In this document: positions 1-33,427 of the stretch, one piece after another
Position numbering within the stretch: position 1 is the stretch's first letter
How the letters are laid out: each line of letters starts with the position of its first letter
NCBI GenBank assembly: GCA_035488355.1
Contig: DATHLI010000131.1
Location: 1 to 41,794 of the forward strand
Length of the DNA stretch: 41,794 bases
Origin: a bacterium
GTDB taxonomy: Bacteria > Sysuimicrobiota > Sysuimicrobiia > Sysuimicrobiales > Segetimicrobiaceae
Direction of reading: 5' to 3'
The notes under the pieces: model-generated
The model's input: only the letters and a program-made list of their open reading frames with translations
Database searches by the model: none
What the model was told of the DNA's origin: nothing
Translations under genes and position numbers: made by a program

Positions 1-452
1 TCAAGGCGCGGCTCCACCAACACGGCAACAGCGTGGCCCCCCCGGAACACGAACCCTATGCCCTGGAAGGGATAGGTGACGGTCCGGTAGGCGCCGGAGG
101 TAGTGCGGACGGTATTCTCGTCGCCGATGAGGCGTGTGGCACCACTTGGCGACACCCCTATTCCGGCGCCGGCATTCGTTCGGAACATCTTGCTCGTCGT
201 CTTGATCTGTACGGCGACGCCCTTCTCGAAGACTACGGTTAGCCCAAAGCGGGAGAAATACATCCGCCCCCCGTGGCTCGCGCTGGGCTGGCCTAATAGG
301 CCGATGACTTGTTGTACGGGCATCCCCAGGCTTACAGGGCCTATCCCCACTCCTGGGGTGATGACCAAGGGAGTAGTGACATCGCCGGCCTTTACGGGCC
401 CAATGACGACCAGCAGGATGCACATGACCGCCGCGGTGAGCGAGCGGATCAT
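1..452 (-). CDS. Small secreted protein of unknown function; 3' end truncated by the window edge, so it is not in the supplied ORF track
   Basis: The reverse complement from ATG at 452-450 reads MIRSLTAAVMCILLVVIGPVKAGDVTTPLVITPGVGIGPVSLGMPVQQVIGLLGQPSASHGGRMYFSRFGLTVVFEKGVAVQIKTTSKMFRTNAGAGIGVSPSGATRLIGDENTVRTTSGAYRTVTYPFQGIGFVFRGGHAVAVLVEPRL... It stays open to position 1 with no stop. It has a signal-peptide-like N-terminus, balanced composition and G/C-rich third positions. The listed 1..423 ORF in another frame is Arg/Pro/Gly-rich. Confidence 0.55.
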   Translation of the reverse strand, partial: MIRSLTAAVMCILLVVIGPVKAGDVTTPLVITPGVGIGPVSLGMPVQQVIGLLGQPSASHGGRMYFSRFGLTVVFEKGVAVQIKTTSKMFRTNAGAGIGVSPSGATRLIGDENTVRTTSGAYRTVTYPFQGIGFVFRGGHAVAVLVEPRL

Positions 453-555
453 TGGCGGTCTTGGTATCCCTGTCCAGTGGGTTCCCATTGGCCGCACTCC
501 TGCCTCGTATCCGTAGACGGCCGGAAAAGAAGTGGCGAGAGGAGGGTTGGCTAAC

Positions 556-585
556 AAAAAAACCCTCCGGATATCACGGAAGGTT
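556..585 (-). terminator. Intrinsic terminator; proposed expression platform of the upstream riboswitch
   Basis: On the minus strand: AACCUUCCG (585-577), loop UGAUAUC (576-570), CGGAGGGUU (569-561). This is a 9-bp stem with one G-U pair. It runs into a U7 tract (562-556). Confidence 0.75.
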
Positions 586-596
586 TTCCCTTACCG

Positions 597-684
597 CTCC
601 GGTAACCCGGCCGGCTTGCCAGCATTGCTGGCCTGCCCCGTGGCTTTGCGTCCCCAGATCTCTCTGGGTTTGCCCCTACGGAAG
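597..684 (-). promoter_or_regulatory. c-di-GMP-I (GEMM-I) riboswitch aptamer
   Basis: Minus-strand RNA: CUUCCGUAGGGGCAAACCCAGAGAGAUCUGGGGACGCAAAGCCACGGGGCAGGCCAGCAAUGCUGGCAAGCCGGCCGGGUUACCGGAG. It contains GGGCAAACC, a CCCAGA/UCUGGG hairpin capped by the GNRA tetraloop GAGA, GACGCAAAGCC, and a 3' GGGUUACCG segment. These occur in the same order as in the V. cholerae Vc2 aptamer as I recall it. A P1 helix can form between CUUCCGUA (684-677) and UACCGGAG (604-597). Confidence 0.8.
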
Positions 685-719
685 CGCGACTGATTGATCT
701 ATGCTCGACAAGCGAACAC

Positions 720-748
720 AGTACACCAAATCCATGCTCGAATGTCAA
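720..748 (-). promoter_or_regulatory. Candidate sigma70-type promoter driving the riboswitch leader
   Basis: Minus strand: TTGACA (748-743), a 17-nt spacer, then TGTACT (725-720). It lies about 35 nt upstream of the aptamer 5' end, in a locally lower-GC stretch. Confidence 0.4.
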
Positions 749-838
749 TGAAACAACGCCGGAAGGTTCCATTGGCGGATCACCTGGAATTCTGACGTCA
801 ACTTCCAAGAGATCTCAAGCCGAACTACCCCGGTCCCC

Positions 839-3040
839 CTAATCGCCGAGCCTGGTCAGGGTGCGGCGTGCGTCATCGATCCCCTCGAACTCCTGCTTGG
901 GTGCCAGCGCAGTGTGCAGTTCGCGTTTCGCCATCTCGCTGTTCCCAGATTGATAATAGGCGAGCCCGAGATGGTAGTGGACGATGGGGGCCTTCGTCAG
1001 CACTTGGGCGGACTCTTCGAGGAGGGGAAGAGCCTGCTTCACCAGGCCCTTCTTATAGTATACCCACCCCAGGGTGTCGGCCACGTACGCGCTGTTCGGC
1101 ATCCATTTTCTGGCTGTTTGCGCGAGCGTAAGCGCCCTATTGAGATCGCCCCCGTGGACGGCATATGACCATGCCAGGTTGTTCGCGGCAAGGGCGAAAT
1201 TGGGATTCACCTTCAACGCCTGCTCATAGAGTTCCCGGGCCCTCGTAATGTTGCCCTGGCGGTCATTGATGGTGCCCAGCACAATATACGTGGGCAGATA
1301 CCGCGGGTTGAGACGGAGCGCTTCCTCGTACTTGCGGGTCGCCATCTCGTTCGCGTTCTCCCTCGCGTAGAGGTCTCCGAGGCGGAGGTACGGGAGAATA
1401 TCGTTGGGGTCGGTGGAAATCGCATGATAATACGCTTCTTCCGCCTTAGCAGTCTGCCCGACCGCGGCGTAGGTGGCGCCGAGGAGCATCTGCAGGCGTG
1501 AATTCTTGGGAGAACGTTCGATTTGGGATTCCGCGCGGCGGATCGCGGCGGCCACGTCTCTCTTATCGAGGTAGATCTGGATCTCCTGAGCGAGCGCGTC
1601 CACGAAGTCGGGCGACAGGGTCAGGGCGGCCTCGAACTCGGGGAGGGCATTGTCGACTCGGCCGGCGGCCCGGTACGCGAGGCCCAGGTGCATGTGGGCG
1701 GTGGGGTCCTTGGGATTGACGGCGATCGCGCGCTGGTATATATCGAACGCCTGGGGGAAGGCTTTTTGGCCGGCATAGAAATCGCCAAGCAGGAGATAGG
1801 CGCCGGAGCTGCCCGGCTCAAGGGTGACCAGCGTCCTCAGTTGCCGTTCGGCCGCCTTGGGGTCACCCGATTGCACCTGCAGTTGCGCGAGGGCGACGCG
1901 CGCCTCGGCGAAACGTGGGGCGAGCTTCAGAGCCTCCGCGAGCTGTTCTTTGGCGGAGGAGATGTCCGGCCGGACCAGGTAGGCGCGGGCGAGGAAATAG
2001 CGCACCGCCGCATCGCCGGGCCGCCCCCTGGCAACGGTCTGGAACTCCTCGGTGGCGACCTTGGCGTCACCTTTGGCGAGGTACACTTTGCCTCGGATGA
2101 AGTGCGCGGTGACATCCTGAGGGGCCTTGGCGAGGATGTCTTCGATCACGACTCTGGCGTCGTCCAGCTTCCCCTGCGCGACCAGCAGGTCCGCCACCTT
2201 CAAGCTGGGCACGGGTGAGCGGGGGGTGATCCCCTGCGCGGTCCGATACTGGGCCAGCGCCTCAACGGGTTTCCCTTCGGCGGCGTAGAGGTCCCCCAGG
2301 GCGAGGGGGATTTCCGCCCGCCGCGGCATGGCGCCTGCGGCCTCCTTGAGCACCTGCTCCGCGGCGTCCCGCCGCCCCTGCCGCATCAGGAGATTGGCGA
2401 GGGCGATGCGGGGCTCAGGAACGGCCGGCGCGGCAGCAATACCCTGCCGGAGCGTCTTCTCCGCCAGCGCAGCGTCGCCCTTGGCCGCTTGAATGCCGGC
2501 CAGAAGCGTGTACGCCGGGGCGCTATTGGGTGCCGTCCGAAGGGCTGCGCCGACTTCTCGGAGGGCGCCGTCGAGATCCCTGGTCGCCGCCATGCTCCGA
2601 GCGAGGAGGACATGGGCGTCCGCGTTCGATGGATCCTTACCGAGAACGAGCTTGGCCTGATCCCGAGCCTGTGAGTATTGGCCGGCGAGGAGGACGATCT
2701 CTCCCAGCTTGAGGTGCGCGTCGAGGATCTTGCCGTCCAGTTCCAGGCTCTTGGTCAGTTCCCGATAGCTCAGGGCGGGTTCCCCCATCCGAAGATAGGC
2801 GACGCCCAGCTTGTAGTGGGCCTGCGCAGACTGGGGGGCGATCTGGAGGATGTTTCTGAAGGCCAGCGCTGCCTCGCCATATCGCTCCGCGGCGAGGAAG
2901 CCGTCTCCGCTCCTCGTGTATCTCAGAACCCGGCCCTGGGGGCTTCTCAGCGCCATGACGCCCAAGACGGCAATCAGGGTCAGGGCGCCCAGCAGCACCA
3001 GTCCGACGGTAAAGCGCTTAGAGATCCGAGCTGAAGCCAT
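839..3040 (-). CDS. TPR-repeat protein, PEP-CTERM-system PrsT-like; N-terminal membrane anchor followed by TPR repeats throughout
   Basis: The track ORF 839..3103 is trimmed to ATG 3040 (MASARISKRFTVGLVLLGALTLIAVLGVMAL...), which is preceded by GAGGGG. The whole length consists of ~34-aa A/L/Y-rich TPR-like repeats (e.g. AHYKLGVAYLRMGEPALSYRELTKSLELD). It sits directly downstream of the exosortase and EpsI genes. Confidence 0.8.
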   Translation of the reverse strand: MASARISKRFTVGLVLLGALTLIAVLGVMALRSPQGRVLRYTRSGDGFLAAERYGEAALAFRNILQIAPQSAQAHYKLGVAYLRMGEPALSYRELTKSLELDGKILDAHLKLGEIVLLAGQYSQARDQAKLVLGKDPSNADAHVLLARSMAATRDLDGALREVGAALRTAPNSAPAYTLLAGIQAAKGDAALAEKTLRQGIAAAPAVPEPRIALANLLMRQGRRDAAEQVLKEAAGAMPRRAEIPLALGDLYAAEGKPVEALAQYRTAQGITPRSPVPSLKVADLLVAQGKLDDARVVIEDILAKAPQDVTAHFIRGKVYLAKGDAKVATEEFQTVARGRPGDAAVRYFLARAYLVRPDISSAKEQLAEALKLAPRFAEARVALAQLQVQSGDPKAAERQLRTLVTLEPGSSGAYLLLGDFYAGQKAFPQAFDIYQRAIAVNPKDPTAHMHLGLAYRAAGRVDNALPEFEAALTLSPDFVDALAQEIQIYLDKRDVAAAIRRAESQIERSPKNSRLQMLLGATYAAVGQTAKAEEAYYHAISTDPNDILPYLRLGDLYARENANEMATRKYEEALRLNPRYLPTYIVLGTINDRQGNITRARELYEQALKVNPNFALAANNLAWSYAVHGGDLNRALTLAQTARKWMPNSAYVADTLGWVYYKKGLVKQALPLLEESAQVLTKAPIVHYHLGLAYYQSGNSEMAKRELHTALAPKQEFEGIDDARRTLTRLGD

Positions 3041-3211
3041 TCGCGACCCCTCGCAACGACATGAGAGGCCAGCGCATTTCTGCTCCGGCCTCCCTCCCCG
3101 CATCTTTCATAGTGGCAACCAGATCATACGACGGCTCCTGGGCCGGCTGCTTCCATCGTTCGGAGGATTTCCATGGATCAAACGATTTGAGGGCCTGCTA
3201 CCATCCCGCGG

Positions 3212-3847
3212 CTACCTCGGCAGGAGGCGGTCGAGGTGGGGAAAAGCCGCCTGGAGGAAGGCGGCCTCGCTTCGAAGGGTATCCTGGGACGGGCCAACGG
3301 CGGGTGCGGTGATGCGGACCAGGGCCTCGTCGTCCCTATGCTGGGTCAAGGAGGTCCAGGCCAGGAAGGTGACCGCCGACAGCTCTTTTGCGACCACCGT
3401 GCCCTTGATCTGATACCAGTACAGCACCACCTGCTTAGCCTCGCCTTTCTGGACCTCGGCGCGGTTGACGATGATCGTCCGGTCGGCAAGTTGGATCGGC
3501 ATGTTCTGGACGTACGCGATGATCCATCCCGCGCCCGGGAGGCACACAATCGGAGAATGCAGGCGGTTGACGCCGGGACGCTGCGAGCCCCAGTAACCGA
3601 CGTACAGCCACAACTCGTTGCCCGCCGGCGCGCGGTAGCGGCGCAGGAGGTAATCGTCGACCTGCAAGGTCTGCAGGATTCCCGGCTCGAGAAACTCCGT
3701 CCGGCCTTCCCATCCCTCCAGCCTCAGCGGGAACGCGTTGAGAGGCTCGCGGGTCGGGATGGTATTCTCGTGGGTGACGGCCTTGAGCGGGAAGATTGCC
3801 AGGACGATGGTGACCAGAGCGATGAGATAGGATGTTCGCGCGATCAT
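3212..3847 (-). CDS. epsI: EpsI-family protein (exosortase-associated)
   Basis: Internal start of the 3212..4591 ORF: MIARTSYLIALVTIVLAIFPLKAV... One N-terminal TM segment, then a soluble domain (LRLEGWEGRTEF..., YVGYWGSQRPG..LHSP..CLPG.GW). Its ATG overlaps the exosortase stop (ATGA at 3844-3847). Confidence 0.75.
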   Translation of the reverse strand: MIARTSYLIALVTIVLAIFPLKAVTHENTIPTREPLNAFPLRLEGWEGRTEFLEPGILQTLQVDDYLLRRYRAPAGNELWLYVGYWGSQRPGVNRLHSPIVCLPGAGWIIAYVQNMPIQLADRTIIVNRAEVQKGEAKQVVLYWYQIKGTVVAKELSAVTFLAWTSLTQHRDDEALVRITAPAVGPSQDTLRSEAAFLQAAFPHLDRLLPR

Positions 3848-4734
3848 CTTCTTGCCCCCTGTCCGGTCACACGCGAGAGGGCCAGGCCTTCGAGGGCCAG
3901 GAGGCCGAAGGCCAGGCCGAAGATCACCACGCCGGAGAAGGTATGGTAGAACCCCAGCGCCACCCGTGGGTCCACGGTCTCTACCAGCACACCCGTGAGC
4001 GTCACCCGCGCGGCATTCGCCACCAGCGCGATTGGAATCGCGGAGAGCGCCAGGACCAGCCGGGGGCCCCATTTCGTCTGGGCGAAGTACGCGTAGATCA
4101 CCGCCAGGGCCAGGAGGGAGATGAGCGATCGGATACCGCTGCACGCCTCGGCCACCTCGAGGCGCATCGAAGGCAGATCGATGATGTTCCCCTCGCGGAG
4201 CACCGGCACGTTGAGGAGGTCCAGGGTCCCCGTGGCGAGGCGCGCGGCCTGGAGTTGCAGCGGGAAGGCGATCTGGTTCAATGCCGGCGCCGGCAGCGGG
4301 ATCATGAAGAGCAGATAGGCGAGGGGAAAGGCGACCAGCCCCAGCACCTTTGGTCCGCCCAAGAAGAGGGTTAGTCCGGTGAACACCACCAGGAGGGAAA
4401 ACCGCGCGGGATACCCGAAGGTCCCGGCCTGGCTGACGATGAGAAGGATCAGGCCCACCAGGAGCACCGGGTAGCCCCACGCGGATCCCTTTACCGGGAC
4501 GTGCTGCAGGCGCTCCCGGCGCTGCCAGATCAGATAGGCGCTGACGAGGGGGATGAGGAAGCCGTGCGAGTAATTCTCGTCGGCCCTCCACTGGCTCACC
4601 AGATCGACCAGCACGGGGTAGTAGAGGTAGACGACGGCCGCTCCCAGGGCCACCATCGGAATCGCCGGGGTGAGAGGCGCGAGGGCGGTGCGCCTCTTCG
4701 AGATGAGGTCAGGGACTACTGCCGCAAGCGCCAC
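3844..4734 (-). CDS. Exosortase (EpsH/Xrt family transpeptidase)
   Basis: Polytopic membrane protein with hallmark motifs: ENYSHGFLIPLVS near the N-terminus, VAEACSGIRSL (catalytic Cys), NAARVTLTG (Arg) and FYHTFSGVVIF (His). GTG start at 4734; the internal ATG (MVALGAAV...) is an alternative. Confidence 0.9.
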   Translation of the reverse strand: MALAAVVPDLISKRRTALAPLTPAIPMVALGAAVVYLYYPVLVDLVSQWRADENYSHGFLIPLVSAYLIWQRRERLQHVPVKGSAWGYPVLLVGLILLIVSQAGTFGYPARFSLLVVFTGLTLFLGGPKVLGLVAFPLAYLLFMIPLPAPALNQIAFPLQLQAARLATGTLDLLNVPVLREGNIIDLPSMRLEVAEACSGIRSLISLLALAVIYAYFAQTKWGPRLVLALSAIPIALVANAARVTLTGVLVETVDPRVALGFYHTFSGVVIFGLAFGLLALEGLALSRVTGQGARR

Positions 4735-4822
4735 GGGCCGAGCATACTCCTGCCGTTTGTGTTCATCACCTCTCCATACGGACCGGCGGGCGGCCCCGCC
4801 TTCGTTCGGAAGGAGGAACTGG

Positions 4823-4850
4823 GCGGATCATTCGAACGAGCGGATCATTC
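4823..4850. repeat. Direct repeat GCGGATCATTC x2 (17-bp period) upstream of the exosortase gene
   Basis: gcggatcattc occurs at 4823-4833 and again at 4840-4850, about 90-115 nt upstream of the exosortase start. Possible operator. Confidence 0.4.
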
Positions 4851-4957
4851 CCCGCTGTGACCGGCGCCGCTATGATCTCTTCGCAAGGGCTCGGCAGAAC
4901 GGGACAGAATCCCAACTGGGGACCCGCCGGTTTCCGCAGCGGCGGTAGACAGCGCTC

Positions 4958-5034
4958 GAGACGCGTGGTTATACTTATTAAATGAGGCTTTAATGAAGCG
5001 TAAATGAAGCTTTAATGCGGCGCTCACGCGTCTC
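4958..5034. promoter_or_regulatory. AT-rich island with internal 21-nt direct repeats, bracketed by a 10-bp inverted repeat; lies in a divergent promoter region
   Basis: GAGACGCGTG (4958-4967) and CACGCGTCTC (5025-5034) are perfect inverted repeats. Between them lie aaatgaggctttaatgaagcg (4980-5000) and aaatgaagctttaatgcggcg (5002-5022), at 22-bp spacing. This is the lowest-GC stretch of the window and sits between the divergent exosortase and response-regulator genes. Confidence 0.45.
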
Positions 5035-5109
5035 ATTATTGCGCGCTACCGCTCTTGATCAGCCCGAGTACCTGGAGACGGATTCGATCCCACCGAGGGG
5101 GCTAGACCG

Positions 5110-5775
5110 GTGACCCCGGAGACGGGCCTTGTGAAGGTCCTGGTCGTCGACCCGTCCCCCATCATGTTGGCGGGGCTCCGCGGCGTACTGCAGTCCGACC
5201 CGGAGATCGAACTGGTGGGCGCCTGCGGCACCGGCGCGGAGGCGCTTGAGGTCTGCTCGCGCGCCCATCCAACCGTGGTGATCACCGATGTGACTCTGCC
5301 GGACATGACCGGCGTCGAGCTCTGCCGCGCGGTCCAACAGCGCCTGGAGAACGTGAACGTGCTCTTCCTCACCGCGAACGACGATAACGCCAGTATCTTT
5401 GGCGCGATCGGCGCCGGCGCCTCGGGGTACGTGCTCAAGGATATCACCCCCGAGAATTTCCTGCGCGCGATCCACGCGGTCCGGAAGGGGCAGTCCATGG
5501 TCCATCCCGGGATCACCCGGCGCGTGTTGGATAAGCTCTCGGTGGTCACGCGCGACGGCAACGGCGGACTGCTGTTCGATCAAAAGCTGACCGAGCGAGA
5601 GGGCCAGATCCTTGCCGAGGTCGCCCGCGGCCTGACGAACAAGCAGATCGCGCACAAACTCTATGTCTCCGAAAGCACCGTGAAGAGCCGCCTGAGGGGC
5701 ATCTTCAGCAAGATCGGCGCGCACGACCGCACCCAGGCCACCGCCATCGCTATTCGGGAAGGGTACGCGGAGTAG
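5110..5775 (+). CDS. Response regulator, NarL/FixJ (LuxR-type HTH) family
   Basis: The receiver domain has VLVVDPSP, VVITDVTLPDM (phospho-acceptor Asp), LFLTAN and GYVLKD. The C-terminal LuxR HTH reads LTEREGQILAEVARGLTNKQIAHKLYVSESTVKSRLRGIFSKIG. GTG start at 5110 after GAGGGGG; GTG 5131 is an alternative. Confidence 0.9.
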   Translation: MTPETGLVKVLVVDPSPIMLAGLRGVLQSDPEIELVGACGTGAEALEVCSRAHPTVVITDVTLPDMTGVELCRAVQQRLENVNVLFLTANDDNASIFGAIGAGASGYVLKDITPENFLRAIHAVRKGQSMVHPGITRRVLDKLSVVTRDGNGGLLFDQKLTEREGQILAEVARGLTNKQIAHKLYVSESTVKSRLRGIFSKIGAHDRTQATAIAIREGYAE

Positions 5776-5834
5776 CCGCCCCGGATCTCCGCCGTGAGCC
5801 GGTCGCCCGGAAGACGCCGTCGTGCGCCGGGCCG

Positions 5835-7166
5835 CTACGGCCGGCGATCGACGACATAGTCCTGCCGAATATCCTGCGTTCCGCACCCCCCATCGCAATC
5901 CAGCGACCAGGTCGAGGCGAAGATGAGCCTGAGCCCGTCCCCGCTCGGCACCGGGTGTGCCTCGCATCGATAACAGTTGGTCGTATCCGTATGGAGGTGC
6001 GCCCACCGCTCCACGGTCTTGCTGCCGTCGAGCGGGACGGCGATGACTTCCTGATTGAACCGCCGTCCATCCTGGCCCTCGTAGTAGGACACGTACGCCC
6101 AGCCGGGACGCCGGGTCGCGCGCAGCGAGACATGGTACGCGTATGCTTCGTTCGTCGGATCCGTTAGCGACATGATCGCGCCGTCCCGCAGGCGGACCAT
6201 GATCACGTGCCCGAGCAATTGTCCGTTCACGATCTGACCGGCGTTGCCGCAGTGTTCCTGACCCACCATGACGTCTTCGTTGTTGTCGAACGGGTTCTGC
6301 CCGACGTCCTGGTGGGCGACGTCGTACACGAAGCCGTCCGCGGCCGCCCCGTGGCAGATCGGACCGCTCTCCGGGTGCGGCGTCAGGGCGAGTGTCAGGG
6401 GGTTCACGTCGAAGATCCGGTTGTAATCACCGCTGTAATGGACCCAGACGTACTTCCCGCTCGCTGACATGCCCATGCCGGTCGCCGCCCACCCGTTATA
6501 CGCGTAGCTGGCGATGGGGCCAATGAGGTCGGCCTGCATGTCGACCACGAACATGTTGCCCGCCTGGTCGGCCAGCGCCACGAACCGGCCGTCGGCCGAG
6601 GCATTGCCGTTCGTCAGGCCGAGGAAGGACACCGGGATGGGCAGGGTCCAGGACCGGACCTGCCGGCACTGGACGACGTCGAACCACTCGAGCAGGATGC
6701 CGTCGGCGTTGATGCGCACAGACGGCTGGGTCGGATGCCAGCGATCGTCCCGGCGATCGTAGTTGGCGCATTGCGACGCGGCGGGCAGGTAGGAGCTGCC
6801 GTCGAGGAAGAGCAGACTTGGGGTCCCCCCCGGCTGATCCATCGCGATGAGCGTTTGATCCGCGTTCCACGCCTCGTCGGTGGAGTAGTGGTGACGGGCG
6901 TCCGCGCCCCACTGCCAGGATCCGGCGGCGGCGGGCGCGATCGGCGTTCCAGGATCGCCCGAGATCCGCGTGACGATCGTGCCGAACGGCGGGAGGGCCG
7001 CCGGTGCAAGGTACGGAGGCTTGGGCACCGGGCCGACCGGGAGCAGGGCCGAGACATCCGTCACGATGCCCGCCAGACTCATCGGCGCCCCCTGCCCCGA
7101 GAGCAGGACCACCGCCGTGACCAGGATGATCGTCGCCGCGCGCGCCCCAATGCGGTTCCCGCCCAT
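5835..7166 (-). CDS. Secreted Cys-rich protein of unknown function; last gene of the EPS operon
   Basis: 443 aa with a signal-anchor (GARAATIILVTAVVLLSGQG). W/Y/N/D-rich composition with 10 Cys (e.g. TNCYRCEAHP, LDCDGGCGTQD). Recurrent beta-strand-like segments such as ADGRFVALADQAGNMFVVD and ASGKYVWVHYSGD. GAGGAGG lies upstream of the ATG. Confidence 0.7.
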   Translation of the reverse strand: MGGNRIGARAATIILVTAVVLLSGQGAPMSLAGIVTDVSALLPVGPVPKPPYLAPAALPPFGTIVTRISGDPGTPIAPAAAGSWQWGADARHHYSTDEAWNADQTLIAMDQPGGTPSLLFLDGSSYLPAASQCANYDRRDDRWHPTQPSVRINADGILLEWFDVVQCRQVRSWTLPIPVSFLGLTNGNASADGRFVALADQAGNMFVVDMQADLIGPIASYAYNGWAATGMGMSASGKYVWVHYSGDYNRIFDVNPLTLALTPHPESGPICHGAAADGFVYDVAHQDVGQNPFDNNEDVMVGQEHCGNAGQIVNGQLLGHVIMVRLRDGAIMSLTDPTNEAYAYHVSLRATRRPGWAYVSYYEGQDGRRFNQEVIAVPLDGSKTVERWAHLHTDTTNCYRCEAHPVPSGDGLRLIFASTWSLDCDGGCGTQDIRQDYVVDRRP

Positions 7167-7187
7167 GCGTATCTCAGCCTCCTCGGT

Positions 7188-8792
7188 TCAGATGGCATCC
7201 CACACGAGCGCTTTCACACGCCGGACGACCTCCTCCAGCGGGACGCTCGCGTCGAGCGGCACGACCCGGGTCCGCGGAGAATAGCGCAAACGCCGGCTGA
7301 TCCGATCGCGCTTCCGGATCTCCGCGAGGTCCATGTCCGGCTTCCGTTGTGAGGCGACCTCCGGCGCCACATCGAGGCGGACGACCAGATCGGGCGGGTG
7401 CGCCTCGGCCCAGTCGTATGGCGCGCGTTCCCACCGCGCCAGGGCGCGCAGCAGGCGGGAGCGGCTCTCCCGCCACTCCGAGAGCAGCGGCCCGTCCATG
7501 CACCCCATCGTCTGGTTCTGGGGAAACCGGTCGCAGACCACGATCATGCCCCGCTCGTGCGCTCGCCAGGCGCGGCGCAGCCGCTGGGCTTTCTCGGCGC
7601 GGAGGATCAACGCCCACAGCGCTCGGGCGATCCGCATCCCCGCCGGGGGCGTGCCCGGCACGCCGCCGTCCCTCGCGCGCGCCGGGGCGGATCGGGCGCG
7701 CGCCTCCGCCTTCCGCCGGTGCCACCATCGACCGGCGACCTGCAGGGGCCAGCGGATCGGCGACACGGGGCCGTCTCCGCTGCCGAAATAGATGGGCAGC
7801 ACGTCGACGTGCTCCGACAGCCACGCCACGATCTCGTTGACCACGGTGGACTTCCCCGACCCATCCGGACCAACGACCGCGATCAATCGCCCTCCGGTGG
7901 CCGGAGTCAGCCGCAGCGGCACCGGCGGAAAGAGCCGCCTGAGAGGCGACGCGCGCCACACCGCGCAGGCCTCTTTGAGCCATCGGTGCCACACGGCCGC
8001 GCTCGGGCCATACCGGCGGTGGGGATGGAGGGCGGTCACCACGCTGCGGCGAAACGCCAGCAGCCCGCGCATCGACGGCCGGCCCTCCAATAGCTCCGAC
8101 ACCCGCCGCGCGGCGCCGTCGTCCAGCAACTTGCGGCCCCATTCGGCGACCCGTGGGGCGGCCGCACGGGTCTCGAGCCAGCGAAACTTCGTCAGGACGC
8201 GGCCGCGAAAGCACGGCGCCGTCCGAGGCCGGCCCAGCCGCTCGTATGTCCGCAGCTTCAACGCCGCCCGCACAAGGAACAGGATCATGTCGACGTTGGG
8301 ATCCGCCGTGTAGATGCCGTGCTCGGCGTCCAGCCGCCGGCTCGCCAGCACCGCGTCCTCCCAAGGGAGGTGATAGCCCTTGAGGTGCCCCTCGCCCGTG
8401 ATCAGGCGATAGTACACGTGGACGTGGGTGAGACGGGCGGTCTGGCGATCCAGCGCCAGAAAATGGCCGATCGCGGGATACGCAAACCAGCCGCAGGGGA
8501 CACACGGCTTGAATCCGACCTCGGCCAGGATCCGGTTCAGCAGGGGCGCCGCCGTCCCATCGACGAGCAGATCGACGTCGAGCGCGCCCTGCAACGACGC
8601 GGTCAGCGTGTCGTTGTCTTTCCAGTGACAGTAGAGGACATCTTCCTCATGCAGCCGGCCGGTCAATCTGCCGAGGACGCTCAACGTGGTGGATGGTGCA
8701 GGCCGTTCGGTCGCCCCGCCCGTCCCGGTGGTCCGCGCCGCGGCGACGCTGCCGGGCGGGGATCCACGCAGCGCTCCGCGCACCTCTCTCAT
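7188..8792 (-). CDS. Fusion protein: N-terminal uncharacterised nucleotidyltransferase-like domain plus C-terminal thymidylate-kinase-like P-loop domain
   Basis: The N-terminal half has CHWKDN...LQGALDVDLLVD, which resembles the DxD motif of Pol-beta-type 'uncharacterised nucleotidyltransferase' proteins. The C-terminal half has Walker A VVGPDGSGKST, then VVCDRFP (DRY-like) and PDLVVRLDVAPEVASQRK (a dTMP-kinase-like lid). Its ATG overlaps the upstream PIG-L stop (ATGA). Confidence 0.65.
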   Translation of the reverse strand: MREVRGALRGSPPGSVAAARTTGTGGATERPAPSTTLSVLGRLTGRLHEEDVLYCHWKDNDTLTASLQGALDVDLLVDGTAAPLLNRILAEVGFKPCVPCGWFAYPAIGHFLALDRQTARLTHVHVYYRLITGEGHLKGYHLPWEDAVLASRRLDAEHGIYTADPNVDMILFLVRAALKLRTYERLGRPRTAPCFRGRVLTKFRWLETRAAAPRVAEWGRKLLDDGAARRVSELLEGRPSMRGLLAFRRSVVTALHPHRRYGPSAAVWHRWLKEACAVWRASPLRRLFPPVPLRLTPATGGRLIAVVGPDGSGKSTVVNEIVAWLSEHVDVLPIYFGSGDGPVSPIRWPLQVAGRWWHRRKAEARARSAPARARDGGVPGTPPAGMRIARALWALILRAEKAQRLRRAWRAHERGMIVVCDRFPQNQTMGCMDGPLLSEWRESRSRLLRALARWERAPYDWAEAHPPDLVVRLDVAPEVASQRKPDMDLAEIRKRDRISRRLRYSPRTRVVPLDASVPLEEVVRRVKALVWDAI

Positions 8793-9580
8793 GATCCCGC
8801 GGGCGTGCGGGCAGGCTGGAGGGCATCGGCCGCGAGCAGATCCCTCGGCGTGGAAGGAGGCAGGAGGGCATCGGCCACGAGCAGATCCCGCACGAGGATG
8901 AACGCCTCGGCGGCCTGCATCCCCACCGCAATCCCCCGCTGCTGGGCATACACGCGCAGCGCTTCCGGCGACCGTGGGTGGGGATAGGGCTTGACCTCGC
9001 TGATGAAGGTGTTGCGATACGCCTCAAAGGCCCTGAGCTTTTCGTCGAGCGTTGTGCTGATGTCCACGTACACCGTGGGGAGAAACGCCCAGTCCGCGAA
9101 CGGCGGCCCCCACTCCGTCGACGACGCCACCTCGTAACACAGAAGCCTCCGCACCGGGTTCTCGCCAAACGGGCGCGCGGCGACCAGCGTGGCCGCAAAC
9201 GCGGCGCGGTGGTCCTGGTTCGCGTCGCCGTGATGATGCGTGTAGACGACCTGGGGGCGCAGGTCCCGGATCGCGTCGGAGATGGGCCGGATGATGTCGA
9301 GCAGGGGCACGCTGTCGAGCCGCTGGTCCGGGAGATCGACGAAGCGCACCTCGTGAACGCCCAACGCTCGGCACGCGGCGCGCGCCGCCGCCTTCTGCGG
9401 CTCGGTCACGGGGTGATGCGACGTGACGCCGTCCGTCAGGATCAGCACGGACACCCGATCTCCCCCGTGGACATGCCGGGCAATGGTCCCCCCCACCCCG
9501 AGGACTTCATCATCCGGGTGGGCGCCGATGACGAGGACCGACGTCGAGGGGCCGGCGCCCCCGCGGTGTGACTGCGTCAT
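8789..9580 (-). CDS. PIG-L/LmbE-family N-acetylglucosaminyl deacetylase
   Basis: VLVIGAHPDDEVLGVGGTIARH... and HHHGDANQDH motifs. ATGA overlaps on both sides. Confidence 0.85.
   Translation of the reverse strand: MTQSHRGGAGPSTSVLVIGAHPDDEVLGVGGTIARHVHGGDRVSVLILTDGVTSHHPVTEPQKAAARAACRALGVHEVRFVDLPDQRLDSVPLLDIIRPISDAIRDLRPQVVYTHHHGDANQDHRAAFAATLVAARPFGENPVRRLLCYEVASSTEWGPPFADWAFLPTVYVDISTTLDEKLRAFEAYRNTFISEVKPYPHPRSPEALRVYAQQRGIAVGMQAAEAFILVRDLLVADALLPPSTPRDLLAADALQPARTPAGS
8818..8889. repeat. 45-bp in-frame tandem duplication at the 3' end of the PIG-L gene
   Basis: ggagggcatcggccGcgagcagatccc (8818-8844) is repeated as ggagggcatcggccAcgagcagatccc (8863-8889). This encodes RDLLVADALLPPSTP / RDLLAADALQPARTP. 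Confidence 0.8.
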
Positions 9581-11571
9581 CGTGTGGTCACGACAGGGTC
9601 CCCGCCTTTCTCACGCGCGGGCGCCGCCCGGGGAGGCGGTGGGTCTCGGTGCAGCGCGTCGCCGTTTCCCCCCAACCACACCGGCATGGGCTCGGAGCTC
9701 GTCACCATCTGATGCAGCACGCGCTTGACGCCGGTCAGGTCCATGGCACGGGACAGCCTGTCCAGTTCCTGAATGGCCAGCCGCAAGATGACCTCGTCCA
9801 CCCGCCCGTTGGTGCGGACCGCGAACATCCCCGGCAGGGTTGTCCCGCCGAGGGGCTCGTCCGAGGTCTCGAGCGCTTCATGGAGTTGCTCGCCGGGCCG
9901 GATCCCCGTGAAGACAATCGGAATGTCCTTGTCGGGCTCCAGTCCGGAGAGCCGGATCAACTCCTGCGCCAGGTCGAGGATCTTGATGGGCCGGCCCATG
10001 TCGAGCATGAAAATGTCGTGGGATTCCTGCGAGGCGCTGGCCTGAAGGACGAGCGCCACCGCCTCCCGGGTGCTCATGAAGTACCGGGTCATCTCGGGGT
10101 GCGTGATGGTCACAGGTCCCCCGCGGCGAATTTGCTCCTGCAAGACCGGGACGACGCTCCCACGGCTCCCGATCACATTGCCGAAGCGAACGGCGAGAAA
10201 GCGCGTGCCCCCCCGCGCGTTCAGGGCTTTCACGATCCACTCCGCCAGACGCTTGGTCGCCCCCATGACGCTCGTGGCGTTCACGGCCTTGTCGGTGGAA
10301 ATCAGCACGAACGTTTGGGTCCCGCAGGCCAGCGCGGCCTCGGCCACGGCCAGCGTGCCGAGGATGTTTGTCCGGACGGCCTCGTCCGGGTGACGTTCCA
10401 TCAGCGGGACATGTTTGTAGGCGGCCGCGTGGTAGACCACGTCCGGTCGCCAGGCGCTGAACACCTTCTGGATCTTGTCCGAGTCACGGACGTCTGCGAT
10501 CACGGTCTGCACCCGCTGCTCCAGCGGAGGATGAATGATCTCCTCCGCAAGGTGGAACAGCGCGGTTTCGTTCGTGTCGAGCAGGAGCACCCGCGCGGCG
10601 TCCGACCGGGACAATTGACGGGCGAGCTCGCTGCCGATCGACCCGGCGGCCCCCGTGACGAGCACCGTTTGTCCTCTCAGAAAGGCCGCGACACGGTTGG
10701 CGTCGATGGGCGCCGGCTTGCGCCCCAACAGATCCTCCAGATTCACGTCCCGAATGTCATGCACCGTCACGTGGCCCGTGAGGAGCTCGTGAACGCTGGG
10801 GAGCACCCGGACCCGCGTAATGCCCGCCTCGCGGGCGAAGCGCATGATATCACGGACGTGCCCGGAGCCGGCGGAGACGAAGGTAATGACCACTTCGTCG
10901 ACCTCCAGCTTCCGGACCGCGTCCGGAATCGCTTCCTTGCCTCCCATCACTTTCAGCCCGTGGACGAACGTGCCCCACTTCGACGCGTCATCGTCGATAA
11001 ACCCCACCGGATGGTACGCCGCGTGCCCGTTACTCACCATCGACCGGGCGATCATCCCGCCCGCCTCTCCCGCGCCCACCAGCAGCACTCGGGAGCCGCG
11101 TCCGGTGCTCGACCTGGCGCGCGGGATCTCATTCGACAACCGCCGCCCGAGCCGGGAGACCGCGATCAACGTGGTCCCCAACAGATAATCCAGGATCAGG
11201 ACCCCCCGCGGGAAGGTGCCGTAGGCATGGATCCCCTGCAGGAGAAACAGCCCCCCCGCCAGGGTCAGCGTCGCCGCGGTCGACGCCTTCCACGCCCCCA
11301 CAATCTCCTTGAGGCCCACCAGGGCCCAGGTGACGCGGTACAACCGAAAGACGGCGTTCCAGGCGAGCTTCACGGGAAGAAATAGGATCAGCACGACCGG
11401 CATGGCGGCGATGAATTGAGGCGGAATGGCCCCATCGAAGCGAATGAGCAGCGCCAGCGCGTAGCTGAGGACCCAGAGCAGCACATCGCTGATGCCAAAA
11501 TATACATGCTGAGCCACCCAAGCGCCCGACACCCGCCTGGACCGTCCGATCGGCAGCCTGCGGCGAATCAT
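9577..11571 (-). CDS. Membrane-anchored CapD/PglF/WbpM-type NDP-sugar 4,6-dehydratase (polysaccharide biosynthesis protein)
   Basis: N-terminal TM segments, then VLLVGAGEAGG, VLVTGAAGSIGSELARQL and ISTDKAVNATSVMGATKRLAE. Confidence 0.9.
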   Translation of the reverse strand: MIRRRLPIGRSRRVSGAWVAQHVYFGISDVLLWVLSYALALLIRFDGAIPPQFIAAMPVVLILFLPVKLAWNAVFRLYRVTWALVGLKEIVGAWKASTAATLTLAGGLFLLQGIHAYGTFPRGVLILDYLLGTTLIAVSRLGRRLSNEIPRARSSTGRGSRVLLVGAGEAGGMIARSMVSNGHAAYHPVGFIDDDASKWGTFVHGLKVMGGKEAIPDAVRKLEVDEVVITFVSAGSGHVRDIMRFAREAGITRVRVLPSVHELLTGHVTVHDIRDVNLEDLLGRKPAPIDANRVAAFLRGQTVLVTGAAGSIGSELARQLSRSDAARVLLLDTNETALFHLAEEIIHPPLEQRVQTVIADVRDSDKIQKVFSAWRPDVVYHAAAYKHVPLMERHPDEAVRTNILGTLAVAEAALACGTQTFVLISTDKAVNATSVMGATKRLAEWIVKALNARGGTRFLAVRFGNVIGSRGSVVPVLQEQIRRGGPVTITHPEMTRYFMSTREAVALVLQASASQESHDIFMLDMGRPIKILDLAQELIRLSGLEPDKDIPIVFTGIRPGEQLHEALETSDEPLGGTTLPGMFAVRTNGRVDEVILRLAIQELDRLSRAMDLTGVKRVLHQMVTSSEPMPVWLGGNGDALHRDPPPPRAAPAREKGGDPVVTTR

Positions 11572-12953
11572 GGCGTGGACACCGCGGCGGCGTCTCGTCC
11601 GTCCAGGGCGGGGACCGAGACCGGGGCGGCCACCGGCACGGCCGGCGCGTCGCCGCGTCCCAGGCTGTGGTACTCGAAGCCGTGCGCCCGCATCTGCGCG
11701 GGCTCGAAGAGGTTCCGGCCGTCGATGACGAGCGGCGCGCGCATCACCGGACGCAGGCGCTCGAGATCCACGGACCGGAATTCGTCCCAGTCCGTAAGGA
11801 TCACGAGGGCGTGCGCCTCCCGCGCGGCCTGATACGAGGACTCCGCGTAGGCGAGGTGGTCGTCCGGAGGCCAGAGGCCCGCCAGCTTCTGCGCCGCCCG
11901 GGGATCGTAGATGCGGAGGGTCACGCCGGCTTCCCGCAGCCGCGCGATCACCCCGAGGCTGGGCGCTCCGCGGATGTCGTCGGTGTCGGGCTTGAACGCC
12001 ACCCCGAGCACCCCCACCGTCTTCCCGCGCAGGCCCCCCATCGCCTCGTCCAGCTTCTGGATGAGGCGATCCACCCGGGAGGCGTTGATCCGTTCGACCT
12101 CACGCAGCAGGGCGAAGTCGAGGCCCGCGTCCGCGGCGCCCCAGATGAACGCCTTCAGGTCTTTCGTAAAGCACGACCCTCCGTACCCCAGCCCCGCCTG
12201 CAGAAAGTGGGGCCCGATCCGCGGGTCGAGGCCGATGCCGCGCGCGACGTCGGCGACGTCCGCGCCGGCCTGGTCGCAGAAATCGGCCACCATGTTGACG
12301 AACGAGATCTTCGTCGCGAGGAACGCGTTGGCCGCGTGCTTGATGAGCTCGGCGGTCCTGATGCTGGTGAGGAGGATGGGGCACTCGAAATCGCGCGCGT
12401 ACAGCTCGCGGAGGAGCGCCCGGGCCCGGTCTGAGTCGGCGCCGATGATGATCCGGTCGGGGTGCAGGAAGTCGCGCACCGCCGAGCCTTCGCGCAAGAA
12501 CTCGGGATTGCTCGCGACCTCGTACTCGGGCATGCTCCCGACCGGCCGGCGGAGGGCCCGGTCGATGCCGGCGCCCGTATGGACGGGGACCGTGCTCTTT
12601 TCCACGATGAGCTTGAAGCCGTCCGGCCGGCAGGCGATGCTGGCGACGGCCTCGTCGATCTGGGAGAGATCGGTCCGTCCGTCGGGAAGGGCCGGGGTGC
12701 CGACACACAGGAAGATGATGTCCGAGCGGTCCAGCATCTCGGCGGTCGACGTGGTGAACTTCAGGCGGCCGGACTGCAGGGTGGACTGCAGGAGCTCCCA
12801 GAGTCCCGGCTCGTACACGATCGGTTCGCCGCGGGCCAGGCGGGCGACGCGCTCCGCATCCTTGTCCATGCCCACCACGGTGTGGCCGAGCGCGGCAAAT
12901 CCCACCGCGGTGACGAGTCCGACGTGACCGGTCCCCATAATGCCGAGCCTCAT
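11568..12953 (-). CDS. ugd: UDP-glucose 6-dehydrogenase family nucleotide-sugar dehydrogenase
   Basis: The track ORF is trimmed to ATG 12953 (MRLGIMGTGHVGLVTAVGFA...). EKSTVPV, NPEFLREG and GYGGSCFTKD catalytic-Cys motifs are present. A GGGGGG SD-like run lies upstream. Confidence 0.85.
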   Translation of the reverse strand: MRLGIMGTGHVGLVTAVGFAALGHTVVGMDKDAERVARLARGEPIVYEPGLWELLQSTLQSGRLKFTTSTAEMLDRSDIIFLCVGTPALPDGRTDLSQIDEAVASIACRPDGFKLIVEKSTVPVHTGAGIDRALRRPVGSMPEYEVASNPEFLREGSAVRDFLHPDRIIIGADSDRARALLRELYARDFECPILLTSIRTAELIKHAANAFLATKISFVNMVADFCDQAGADVADVARGIGLDPRIGPHFLQAGLGYGGSCFTKDLKAFIWGAADAGLDFALLREVERINASRVDRLIQKLDEAMGGLRGKTVGVLGVAFKPDTDDIRGAPSLGVIARLREAGVTLRIYDPRAAQKLAGLWPPDDHLAYAESSYQAAREAHALVILTDWDEFRSVDLERLRPVMRAPLVIDGRNLFEPAQMRAHGFEYHSLGRGDAPAVPVAAPVSVPALDGRDAAAVSTP

Positions 12954-31734: not shown

Positions 31735-31909
31735 GGCACCCCGAGCCTTCCGGCGCAATCTCCTGGAATCTTCCTCCCAATCTTCCCCATGCTCCCCAGC
31801 CTGGGCGCCGGCGAGCGGACCACCCTACGAGCGCTAGTGGAATTGCCCCGGAGGGGTCGTCTCGCGCTCGAAATGGGGCATGTATTGTACTCGGGGAGGC
31901 GATACCGGA

Positions 31910-33427
31910 ATGTTCCATCTAGTGCCCTTCCTTTCCACCGGTCGCAGAGGCAGCGTCACCGCCGAGGAGTGGATCAGCCTCGTGCGGGTCCTGCTCCTGC
32001 TGTCGTTGATCCCGGCGCTGTGGTTCGGGGTCATCCCCGTGACGCGTCCGGAAGTGGCCCCCATCGTGGTCCTGTTCGGCGCGTATGTGATCTTCCTGGC
32101 GCTCGGCTCCCACCGGCTGGCGCTGCTCCACAAGACCGATCTCGTCATCACGCTGGACCTCCTCGTCACCACGCTCGTCGTGCTCATCTCCGGCGGCGTG
32201 CACAGTCCGTTCGTGTACGGGTACTACCTGACGATTCTCGAGGCGGCGGTGCGGATGAACCTGCGCCAGGCGCTGGCCGCGTCGCTGGCGATGGCCGGGA
32301 TGATCACGCTGCTCTGGCTGCACGCGGGCAGTCCGGCCGCCCTCGAGACGACCGGGTTCCGCCTCGGGGTCTTCGTCGCCAGCGGCTTTTTCATGGCCAT
32401 GTTGTGCGGGTTGCTGGTGCAGGAGTACCGCGCCGCCCACGAGCGCGTGGATGAGCTCGAGTTTGACAGCGGTCTCGCGTCCCGGCTCTCGGGCGAGCTC
32501 CGCGGGGAAGGATTGGCGGAGATTCTCCTGGGGGCGTTCCTCGAGATGACCCAGTTCTCCAAGGGTGCGGCCTACATGTGCGATGAGGGGAGCCGTCCGC
32601 AGCTGATGGCCGCCCGCGGGTTTGAATGGGAAAATGGAGACCTGAGCCCGGCGCATCTCCCGCTCCCGGCGCTGCCGGCCGGGGCCTCCGGCGGCGAGGT
32701 GATCACCCATACCGCTCCCGCGACCGCGTCGGGCGAGGTCATGGCCTGTGTGCCGCTGATCCACGCCGGGCACCTGCGGATGTGGTTGTGCGGGCTGGGG
32801 CAGCCGCCGCTCGCCTTCCCGGACCGCGTCCGCCGCCGCATCCGCCGGCTGGCCACCCACGGCGCGTCCGCGGTGGAGGCGGCCCGCCTCCACGAGAAGG
32901 TCAAGGACTTGGCCGCCAAGGATTCGCTGACCGGGCTGCCCAACCGCCGGACCTTCTTCGAGCGCATGGCCTCCGAGCTGGCCCGCAGCCACCGCCTCGG
33001 ACGTCCCCTCAGCGTCGCCCTCGTGGATCTCAACGGATTCAAGGCCATCAACGACACCTACGGCCACAGCACCGGGGACACGGCGCTGATCCGGGCGGCG
33101 CAGCTGCTGGCCCAGGGCATGCGCGCTTCCGATGTGGTGGCGCGTTTCGGCGGGGACGAGTTCGTGCTGCTGTTCCCGGAGACCACCACGGCGGGTGCCC
33201 AGCGGGTGCTGCGCCGGATGGGCACCATGAAGGCGGCCGTCTCTGAAGAGGTCAGCGCCGAGCTGCGGCTCACGATCGCCTGGGGGGTCGCCACCTGGCC
33301 CACGGACGGTCCCTCGCCCGAGCAGTTGCTGCGGACGGCGGACCGGCGACTCTACGAGATGAAGAAGCGACGGCAGAACGGCAAGCGCGTTCGCGCGACC
33401 CGCGTGGCCAAGCGTCAGATCGCCTGA
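31910..33427 (+). CDS. Membrane-anchored diguanylate cyclase: multi-TM N-terminus, a central domain of unassigned fold, and GGDEF with an RxxD I-site
   Basis: Five to six N-terminal hydrophobic helices. Then LTGLPNRRTFFERM..., LVDLNGFKAINDTYGHSTGD, RASDVVARFGGDEFVLLF (RxxD five residues before GGDEF). ATG 31910 follows GGGGAGG; ATG 31880 is an alternative. Confidence 0.9.
   Translation: MFHLVPFLSTGRRGSVTAEEWISLVRVLLLLSLIPALWFGVIPVTRPEVAPIVVLFGAYVIFLALGSHRLALLHKTDLVITLDLLVTTLVVLISGGVHSPFVYGYYLTILEAAVRMNLRQALAASLAMAGMITLLWLHAGSPAALETTGFRLGVFVASGFFMAMLCGLLVQEYRAAHERVDELEFDSGLASRLSGELRGEGLAEILLGAFLEMTQFSKGAAYMCDEGSRPQLMAARGFEWENGDLSPAHLPLPALPAGASGGEVITHTAPATASGEVMACVPLIHAGHLRMWLCGLGQPPLAFPDRVRRRIRRLATHGASAVEAARLHEKVKDLAAKDSLTGLPNRRTFFERMASELARSHRLGRPLSVALVDLNGFKAINDTYGHSTGDTALIRAAQLLAQGMRASDVVARFGGDEFVLLFPETTTAGAQRVLRRMGTMKAAVSEEVSAELRLTIAWGVATWPTDGPSPEQLLRTADRRLYEMKKRRQNGKRVRATRVAKRQIA

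Follow-up and report, generated by a model that had tools for sequence, protein, structure and literature searches.

The stretch of DNA analysed here (41,794 nt, hereafter the window) carries at its left end, on the minus strand, a unit made up of a promoter, a riboswitch aptamer, a terminator and the 5' part of a gene for a secreted protein (Table 1). The gene upstream of this unit is prsT, which codes for the TPR protein of an XrtA/PEP-CTERM system. Further upstream on the same strand are found a gene for an EpsI-domain protein and then a long run of polysaccharide genes, whose products include Wzy-like, chain-length determinant/tyrosine kinase and Poly_export proteins, sugar transferases, an aminotransferase and a dehydrogenase. 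The order prsT - riboswitch - secreted protein is kept in L130, an 11.8-kb contig that is 91.7% identical to the window over positions 1-11678. The 459-aa ORF at window positions 3212-4591 (-) is matched by exosortase/EpsI models over its C-terminal ~200 aa only, and its N-terminal half was matched by no exosortase model; its tblastn match in L130 comes in two pieces (residues 1-214 and 252-459), and this ORF may represent two genes or have a mis-called start.

The initial annotation of the locus had placed a GGDEF cyclase with an I-site in the same locus as these genes. Such a protein is indeed encoded in the window, with the RASD motif of the I-site five residues ahead of GGDEF, but its gene lies ~31 kb from the riboswitch and on the opposite strand. 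That the organism makes c-di-GMP follows from the fact that its contig encodes a GGDEF protein with an I-site; the presence of the gene does not show specific wiring to the riboswitch.

The gene downstream of the terminator runs off the window, and for this reason the real downstream ORF is absent from the ORF list, which has instead, as was pointed out initially, an 85-aa ORF lying across the RNA. The gene had been described as spanning positions 1..452 and coding for a product of unassigned function with a signal peptide. The translation does have a signal peptide, and searches of Pfam and NCBIfam with the product retrieved no family, even at E<=10, but the start had been placed too far downstream. 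Read in the frame of ATG 452, the ORF reaches upstream to ATG 488, and the closest relative of the unit is found on L001, a 1.6-kb soil contig that encodes P0002, a homolog of 206 aa. Since ATG 488 and its AGGAG sequence are conserved in L001, in which codon 452 reads ATA, ATG 488 is the most probable start of the gene. An ORF of 140 aa with a GTG start, at window positions 1-423 (-) and in another frame than the real gene, has its TGA exactly at position 1, which appears to be a coincidence, the real gene running off the end of the contig.

Close homologs of the secreted product number three, the protein of the window included. A sensitive search yielded 104 remote representatives, in most of which the domain, ~150 aa long, lies at the N-terminus of a protein of ~400 aa, and two distant representatives with BamE/DUF4309/DUF3862-type domains provide a weak hint that the product might have a fold of that kind. 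The AlphaFold2 model of the product, from a three-sequence alignment, has a mean pLDDT of 31.8. Homologs of the product domain (38-51% identity) are also encoded 1.5-3.5 kb upstream of a riboswitch, on the same strand, in five loci (L122:3029-3454, L128:2253-2672, L135:2601-2948, L145:7952-8305 and L150:4420-4791). The downstream gene is pilT in L122, L128, L135 and L145, which suggests that this protein family recurs in genomic association with pilus genes under c-di-GMP control.

Table 1. Features of the riboswitch unit and of its surroundings, in window coordinates.
Feature	Position	Strand	Evidence
Regulated gene, 5' part, running off the window end	1..488	-	translation, conserved ATG
Shine-Dalgarno sequence AGGAG, 8 nt before ATG 488	497..501	-	read directly; conserved in L001
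85-aa ORF over promoter, aptamer and terminator	551..808	-	ORF list
Intrinsic terminator; GC core 583-577/569-563, A-U extension, U7 at 562-556	556..590	-	fold of 600-545, dG -20.4 kcal/mol, z -2.6
Linker CGGUAAGG, can pair with terminator 5' arm 583-577; putative antiterminator core	589..596	-	stepwise nascent-transcript folding (prediction)
c-di-GMP-I class aptamer, three-helix junction	597..683	-	full-length Rfam match; covariation in 20 relatives
P1, 3' strand CGGAG; predicted to double as part of the antiterminator (602-598 with 571-567)	597..601	-	covariation, folding
A603 and C602, unpaired equivalents of A91 and C92	602..603	-	cmscan alignment
P1b helix with nested GGCCAGC-AAU-GCUGGC hairpin	604..645	-	98.3% of cells paired, 4 compensatory pairs
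A47 equivalent, intercalating adenine; G in RF03167 consensus	647	-	cmscan alignment
P1a hairpin CCCAGA-GAGA-UCUGGG, GNRA tetraloop	653..668	-	read directly; 100% paired, one pair covaries AU/GC
J1/2 junction UAGGG, 5 nt; G674 at the G20 place, G676 at the A18 place	674..678	-	covariation-derived P1 register
P1, 5' strand UUCCG (partner 601-597)	679..683	-	96% of cells paired, 3/5 pairs covary (CG/UA, UG/CG/AU)
Extended -10, TGG + TGTACT, 17 nt past the -35	720..728	-	read directly; relatives
-35 hexamer TTGACA of the riboswitch's own promoter	743..748	-	read directly; relatives
prsT, XrtA/PEP-CTERM system TPR protein, upstream gene	839..3103	-	TIGR02917, 342.5 bits (cutoff 312.2)
Diguanylate cyclase, GGDEF + RASD I-site	31880..33427	+	Pfam GGDEF, 3.9e-45; ...RASDVVARFGGDEF...

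The aptamer and its three-helix fold

A cmscan search of the whole window at the Rfam gathering thresholds returned a single match, at 683..597 (-), which covers the full model (positions 1-80 of 80) with 59.8 bits; its E-value of 8.9e-12 is far beyond what chance would produce. One lower-ranked match of the same clan, presumably RF01051 (threshold 35), was also above its own threshold. The initial annotation had recognized a c-di-GMP-I aptamer at 684->597 of the minus strand, and the Rfam match, the motifs GGGCAAACC, CCCAGA-GAGA-UCUGGG, GACGCAAAGCC and GGGUUACCGGAG, all of them read from the sequence within 684..597 (-), and covariation among relatives agree with it. Judged by its sequence, the aptamer is a member of the c-di-GMP-I clan (CL00126), although the family reported by the scan is RF03167 and not RF01051, the one that had been anticipated. 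As it is detected by a standard Rfam scan, the unit constitutes a further member of a known family; with its promoter, aptamer, terminator and gene it is real and complete, and it represents a routine case of a well-known RNA.

Relatives were collected in a metagenome scan for the junction of the window aptamer (pattern GTAGRGGCAAACC-N12-GGGACGCAAAGCC), which gave 30 loci, ~24 of them forming a coherent soil-metagenome subfamily. Its members share the UAGGG junction, the CCCAGAGAGAUCUGGG hairpin, a nested P1b hairpin and a downstream terminator. The junction is present in every aligned member, a constancy that is not independent evidence of selection since the search pattern demanded it, and it also occurs sporadically in unrelated GEMM-I backgrounds. 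The genes downstream of other members include pilT (~6 loci) and sigma factor genes (~5 loci), and these contexts, together with the secreted protein of the window, are typical of a c-di-GMP regulon.

In an alignment of 20 distinct members of the subfamily, 97.4% of the cells of the three-helix structure are paired and nine pairs show compensatory changes. None of 500 shuffles reached the observed values, and slid controls had at most 47% of their cells paired. Covariation in these sequences supports a P1/P1a/P1b three-helix junction. The P1a hairpin with its GNRA loop (GAGA at 662-659) is present just as it had been drawn, but P1 had been drawn one position off, as CUUCCGUA/UACCGGAG. In that register 77.5% of the cells are paired, one pair forms in none of the 20 members, as is also the case of the register used by Rfam, which includes the same pair, and the ligand-contacting C602 would be occupied; covariation gives UUCCG/CGGAG instead (683-679/601-597). 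It was also observed that U678 has a possible partner at position 603 in 20/20 members (U-G in 19 of them, U-A in the window; alignment columns 14 and 112). Combined with G679-C602 and A677-U604, this pair makes up a slipped P1 alternative that occludes C92 and that might correspond to a ligand-free conformation.

The leader of L001 is kept as a whole, at 91% identity to that of the window, and the two 87-nt aptamers differ at three positions, every one of them unpaired. These substitutions bear on the 85-aa ORF, which, being present in the mechanical ORF list, could be taken for a real gene whose resemblance to an RNA is incidental. It overlaps a conserved promoter, a covarying aptamer matched at E 8.9e-12 and a terminator, and the placement of the substitutions at unpaired positions of the RNA also argues against a coding function, so that this reading can practically be dismissed; the ORF is most likely spurious.

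Binding pocket and family label

According to the alignment of the window aptamer to the model and to the 124 other aptamers listed, its pocket nucleotides are canonical, with G674, A647 and C602 at the places of G20, A47 and C92 in Vc2 numbering. The list of contact residues in a study of the class agrees with this numbering and includes A18 (bioRxiv 10.1101/871194). Since the equivalents of the ligand-contacting G20, A47 and C92 are canonical, the ligand is most likely c-di-GMP, one guanine of which would pair with C602.

The label RF03167 (c-di-GMP-I-GGC) was assigned to the window with a margin of 0.8 bits over a threshold of 59, and to the L001 aptamer with 62 bits. The GGC variant was reportedly defined in a paper by Weinberg et al. 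in 2017, and "GGC" presumably denotes positions 20/47/92, as we read it from the model consensus. A true GGC variant would have an altered pocket and a ligand other than c-di-GMP, and the label reported for both aptamers favors that possibility. However, the model consensus reads GACGC-G-AAgCc and the window GACGC-A-AAGCC; the conserved G of the model is replaced in the window by A647, and similarly by an A in L001, and the pocket change that, on this reading, defines the variant is thus absent. The generality of this adenine was apparent in a panel obtained by scanning a genome collection with a pattern that permits A or G at the A47 equivalent. Among the matches listed, which span unrelated phyla, 126/126 aptamers have A at that position; at position 91, which precedes C92, 67 of the panel aptamers among the matches listed have G and 35 have A, and this base provides no discrimination between RF01051 and RF03167. 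Some Solirubrobacterales MAGs carry paired, near-identical c-di-GMP-I aptamers ~800 nt apart (L036:1169-1205 and 2028-2064; L071:844-880 and 1618-1654), and in L047 a second aptamer core begins right after the first in a tandem-like arrangement.

When 19 panel loci were run through cmscan as a control, 17 of 21 A47-bearing aptamers were labelled RF03167, with 66-80 bits. They come from Binatia, Rokubacteria, Nitrospira, Chloroflexi, Cellulomonas and others, and the RF01051 label was limited to Firmicutes-type aptamers and one Cellulomonas copy. The label also flips within the subfamily of the window, three members with the same core (L131, L124 and L139) being assigned to RF01051 with 70-75 bits (threshold 35) and the remaining scanned members to RF03167 with 47-61 bits. 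Because of these two observations, the RF03167 label is concluded to track peripheral architecture and not the pocket. That the window passes the gathering threshold of RF03167 is uninformative, since 17/21 A47 controls pass it as well. The compact periphery of the window aptamer fits the RF03167 model, which wins the clan competition, but the two differ at the A47 equivalent; the label is a product of competition between related clan models and is not diagnostic. The initial annotation would have counted a better score for another family against its assignment, and RF03167 does formally score better, but given A47 and the labels of the controls this is rejected as a refutation. It is very unlikely that the window aptamer is a genuine GGC variant.

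The window aptamer departs from the family elsewhere. Since the covariation-derived P1 register leaves five nucleotides unpaired, J1/2 is 5 nt long, one shorter than in the model, and UAGGG takes the place of the A-rich 6-nt J1/2 of the family, with its A17 and A18. Of the 124 other aptamers among the matches listed, 113 have A at position 18 and two have G; the window has G676 there. The conserved A17-A18 is a feature of the family and is not among the base-specific contacts. From these alignments, the short G-rich J1/2 is the single real departure from the family consensus, and it could alter affinity or specificity.

In its stronger form, this idea holds that the contracted junction (UAGGG for AnAAnG) re-tunes the pocket toward a different nucleotide signal or a markedly different affinity for c-di-GMP. 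The G at position 18, where A is found in 113/124 aptamers among the matches listed, the loss of one nucleotide indicated by covariation, and the inclusion of A18 among the ligand contacts (bioRxiv 10.1101/871194) are compatible with it, as is the presence of the junction in all aligned subfamily members, which the search pattern required and which is therefore not an independent argument. In contrast, the base-specific contacts G20, A47 and C92 are intact, the gene contexts are those of classic c-di-GMP targets, and the same junction turns up sporadically in unrelated GEMM-I backgrounds, all of which makes a re-tuned pocket quite improbable. Recognition of c-di-GMP by a canonical pocket is the preferred reading.

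The type example of the class is Vc2 of Vibrio cholerae (GEMM-I, RF01051), with which the window aptamer has in common P1, P1a with its GNRA loop, P1b, the GGCAAACC and GACGCAAAGCC core motifs, the G20/A47/C92 equivalents, a location in a 5' leader and, over the subfamily, a typical regulon (pilT, sigma factor, secreted or envelope proteins). It differs from it by the 5-nt UAGGG junction without the conserved A17-A18, by the GC-rich hairpin nested in P1b, and by the regulated gene, which codes for an orphan secreted protein next to an XrtA/PEP-CTERM locus. The 3'3'-cGAMP riboswitches of Geobacter (GEMM-Ib; PMC7266159; structure PDB 4YAZ, as cited in PMC7288161) adopt the same fold and are also found ahead of genes for pili and extracellular functions, but they have A at the equivalent of position 20, where the window has G674.

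Promoter, terminator and predicted switching

The promoter proposed initially just upstream of the aptamer, TTGACA-17-TGTACT, is conserved in the leaders of the subfamily. In nearly all of 22 leaders, TTGACA or TTGACT is found at the same relative position amid differing flanks; the promoter pattern of the subfamily continues with a spacer of 17-18 nt, unrelated in sequence, and then TGn and a -10 element of the form T[T/G][T/A]A[C/T]T. The window sequence TTGACA-17-TGG-TGTACT (748-720), in which the TGTACT hexamer is at 725-720, matches this pattern exactly. A promoter/terminator scan of the window, which demands A at position 2 of the -10, found neither element. Between the -10 and P1, most members of the subfamily have a leader motif, ~ACAAnnnnAUAG, which is located at 695-713 (-) in the window (CAUAG at 702-698) and has equivalents in L122-L151; it might belong to the start-site region or else serve as an alternative partner in pairing.

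A hairpin with U7 had been noted eleven nucleotides past the aptamer, and it is indeed separated from P1 by 11 nt, with a stem of ~14 bp (590-577/569-556). A GC-rich hairpin of -10 to -25 kcal/mol follows P1 after a linker of <=16 nt in 20/20 members, with a clear U-rich tract behind it in most of the 20. These sequence features place an intrinsic terminator, as predicted by folding, between the aptamer and the start codon.

Two alternative pairings emerged from stepwise folding of the nascent window transcript, one between the linker (596-589) and the 5' arm of the terminator (583-577), and the other, if P1 is free, between 602-598 and 571-567. Together they would yield an antiterminator of ~-17.8 kcal/mol that cannot coexist with P1 or with the terminator. 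The pairing of the linker with the 5' arm is retained in L001, an A-U pair becoming G-U. In an equilibrium model of the window transcript ending at G563, before the U-tract, the terminator has a probability of 0.92 when P1 is locked but of 0.26 when P1 is unavailable; no switching of the window was seen in this model when the terminator was allowed to pair into the U-tract. The direction is the same in L122, L125 and L128 (0.65-0.93 vs 0.00-0.36), as well as in L001 at the MFE level, where the exact antiterminator pairing differs, and folding of the subfamily revealed no member with the opposite dependence, in which locking of P1 lowers the terminator. A conserved antiterminator is not claimed, because most relatives stay constitutively terminated in the model, at least 13 of the 20 members having a terminator probability above 0.85 even with P1 unavailable. 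Because L001 does not keep the exact antiterminator pairing, support for the OFF direction comes from a small number of sequences and from simple thermodynamic modelling.

The pilT-associated aptamers L122:1453-1555(-), L125:186-289(-) and L128:649-751(-), which display the clearest P1-dependent terminator formation, read GGGUUG-U-CGGAU, with U at the position of the ligand-pairing C92; a C92U pocket might shift their ligand preference.

From these elements, the following mechanism can be proposed. The sigma-70-type promoter (748-720, -) would drive a leader of ~225 nt that folds into the GEMM-I aptamer at 683-597. As long as P1 is not locked, the linker would pair with the 5' arm of the terminator and 602-598 with its 3' arm, the two pairings together forming the antiterminator and allowing read-through. 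Ligand binding would lock P1, leaving only a weak antiterminator, so that the terminator would form and transcription stop. High c-di-GMP would then turn the gene for the small secreted protein (ATG 488) OFF.

Both ON and OFF switches exist among c-di-GMP-I riboswitches. In the OFF switch Cd1, which precedes the flagellar operon of Clostridioides difficile, ligand binding causes premature termination; the window similarly has an aptamer followed by an intrinsic terminator, but it belongs to another phylum, the regulated genes are others, and OFF regulation is only predicted. In an ON switch, the terminator would form by default and ligand binding would lead to read-through. The default-terminated state is conceivable in view of the at least 13 of 20 members that are terminated in the model with P1 unavailable. 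On the other hand, the terminator lies entirely outside of the aptamer, so that locking P1 sequesters none of it, an extension of P1 adds just two base pairs, and in every P1-dependent case (the window, L122, L125, L128 and L001) locking raises the terminator probability. An ON switch is accordingly regarded as unlikely. Ligand-promoted termination, the direction that the initial annotation had favored, agrees with the folding of the window and is the sole direction with computational support; we infer it with some preference, and it is somewhat better than an even bet. The explanation as a whole, namely that a class I c-di-GMP riboswitch acting by termination as an OFF switch precedes the secreted-protein gene, appears probable.

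Significance for the c-di-GMP regulon and for riboswitch annotation

With this unit, the c-di-GMP regulon would gain one gene, which codes for an orphan secreted protein and is located where an XrtA/PEP-CTERM polysaccharide locus of an uncultured soil bacterium ends; as an annotation gain it is modest. The control scans point to an annotation pitfall, in that many ordinary c-di-GMP-I aptamers with the canonical A47 are labelled "GGC" by competition within the Rfam clan, and this label alone should not be taken as a sign of altered ligand specificity.

The coherent subfamily with its short G-rich junction represents a cheap candidate set for a check of ligand selectivity. That it might be a previously undescribed soil-bacterial GEMM-I subfamily whose UAGGG junction alters ligand specificity or affinity is a long shot. 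If true, it would constitute a new variant class, with pilT, sigma-factor and exopolysaccharide-locus genes under its control.
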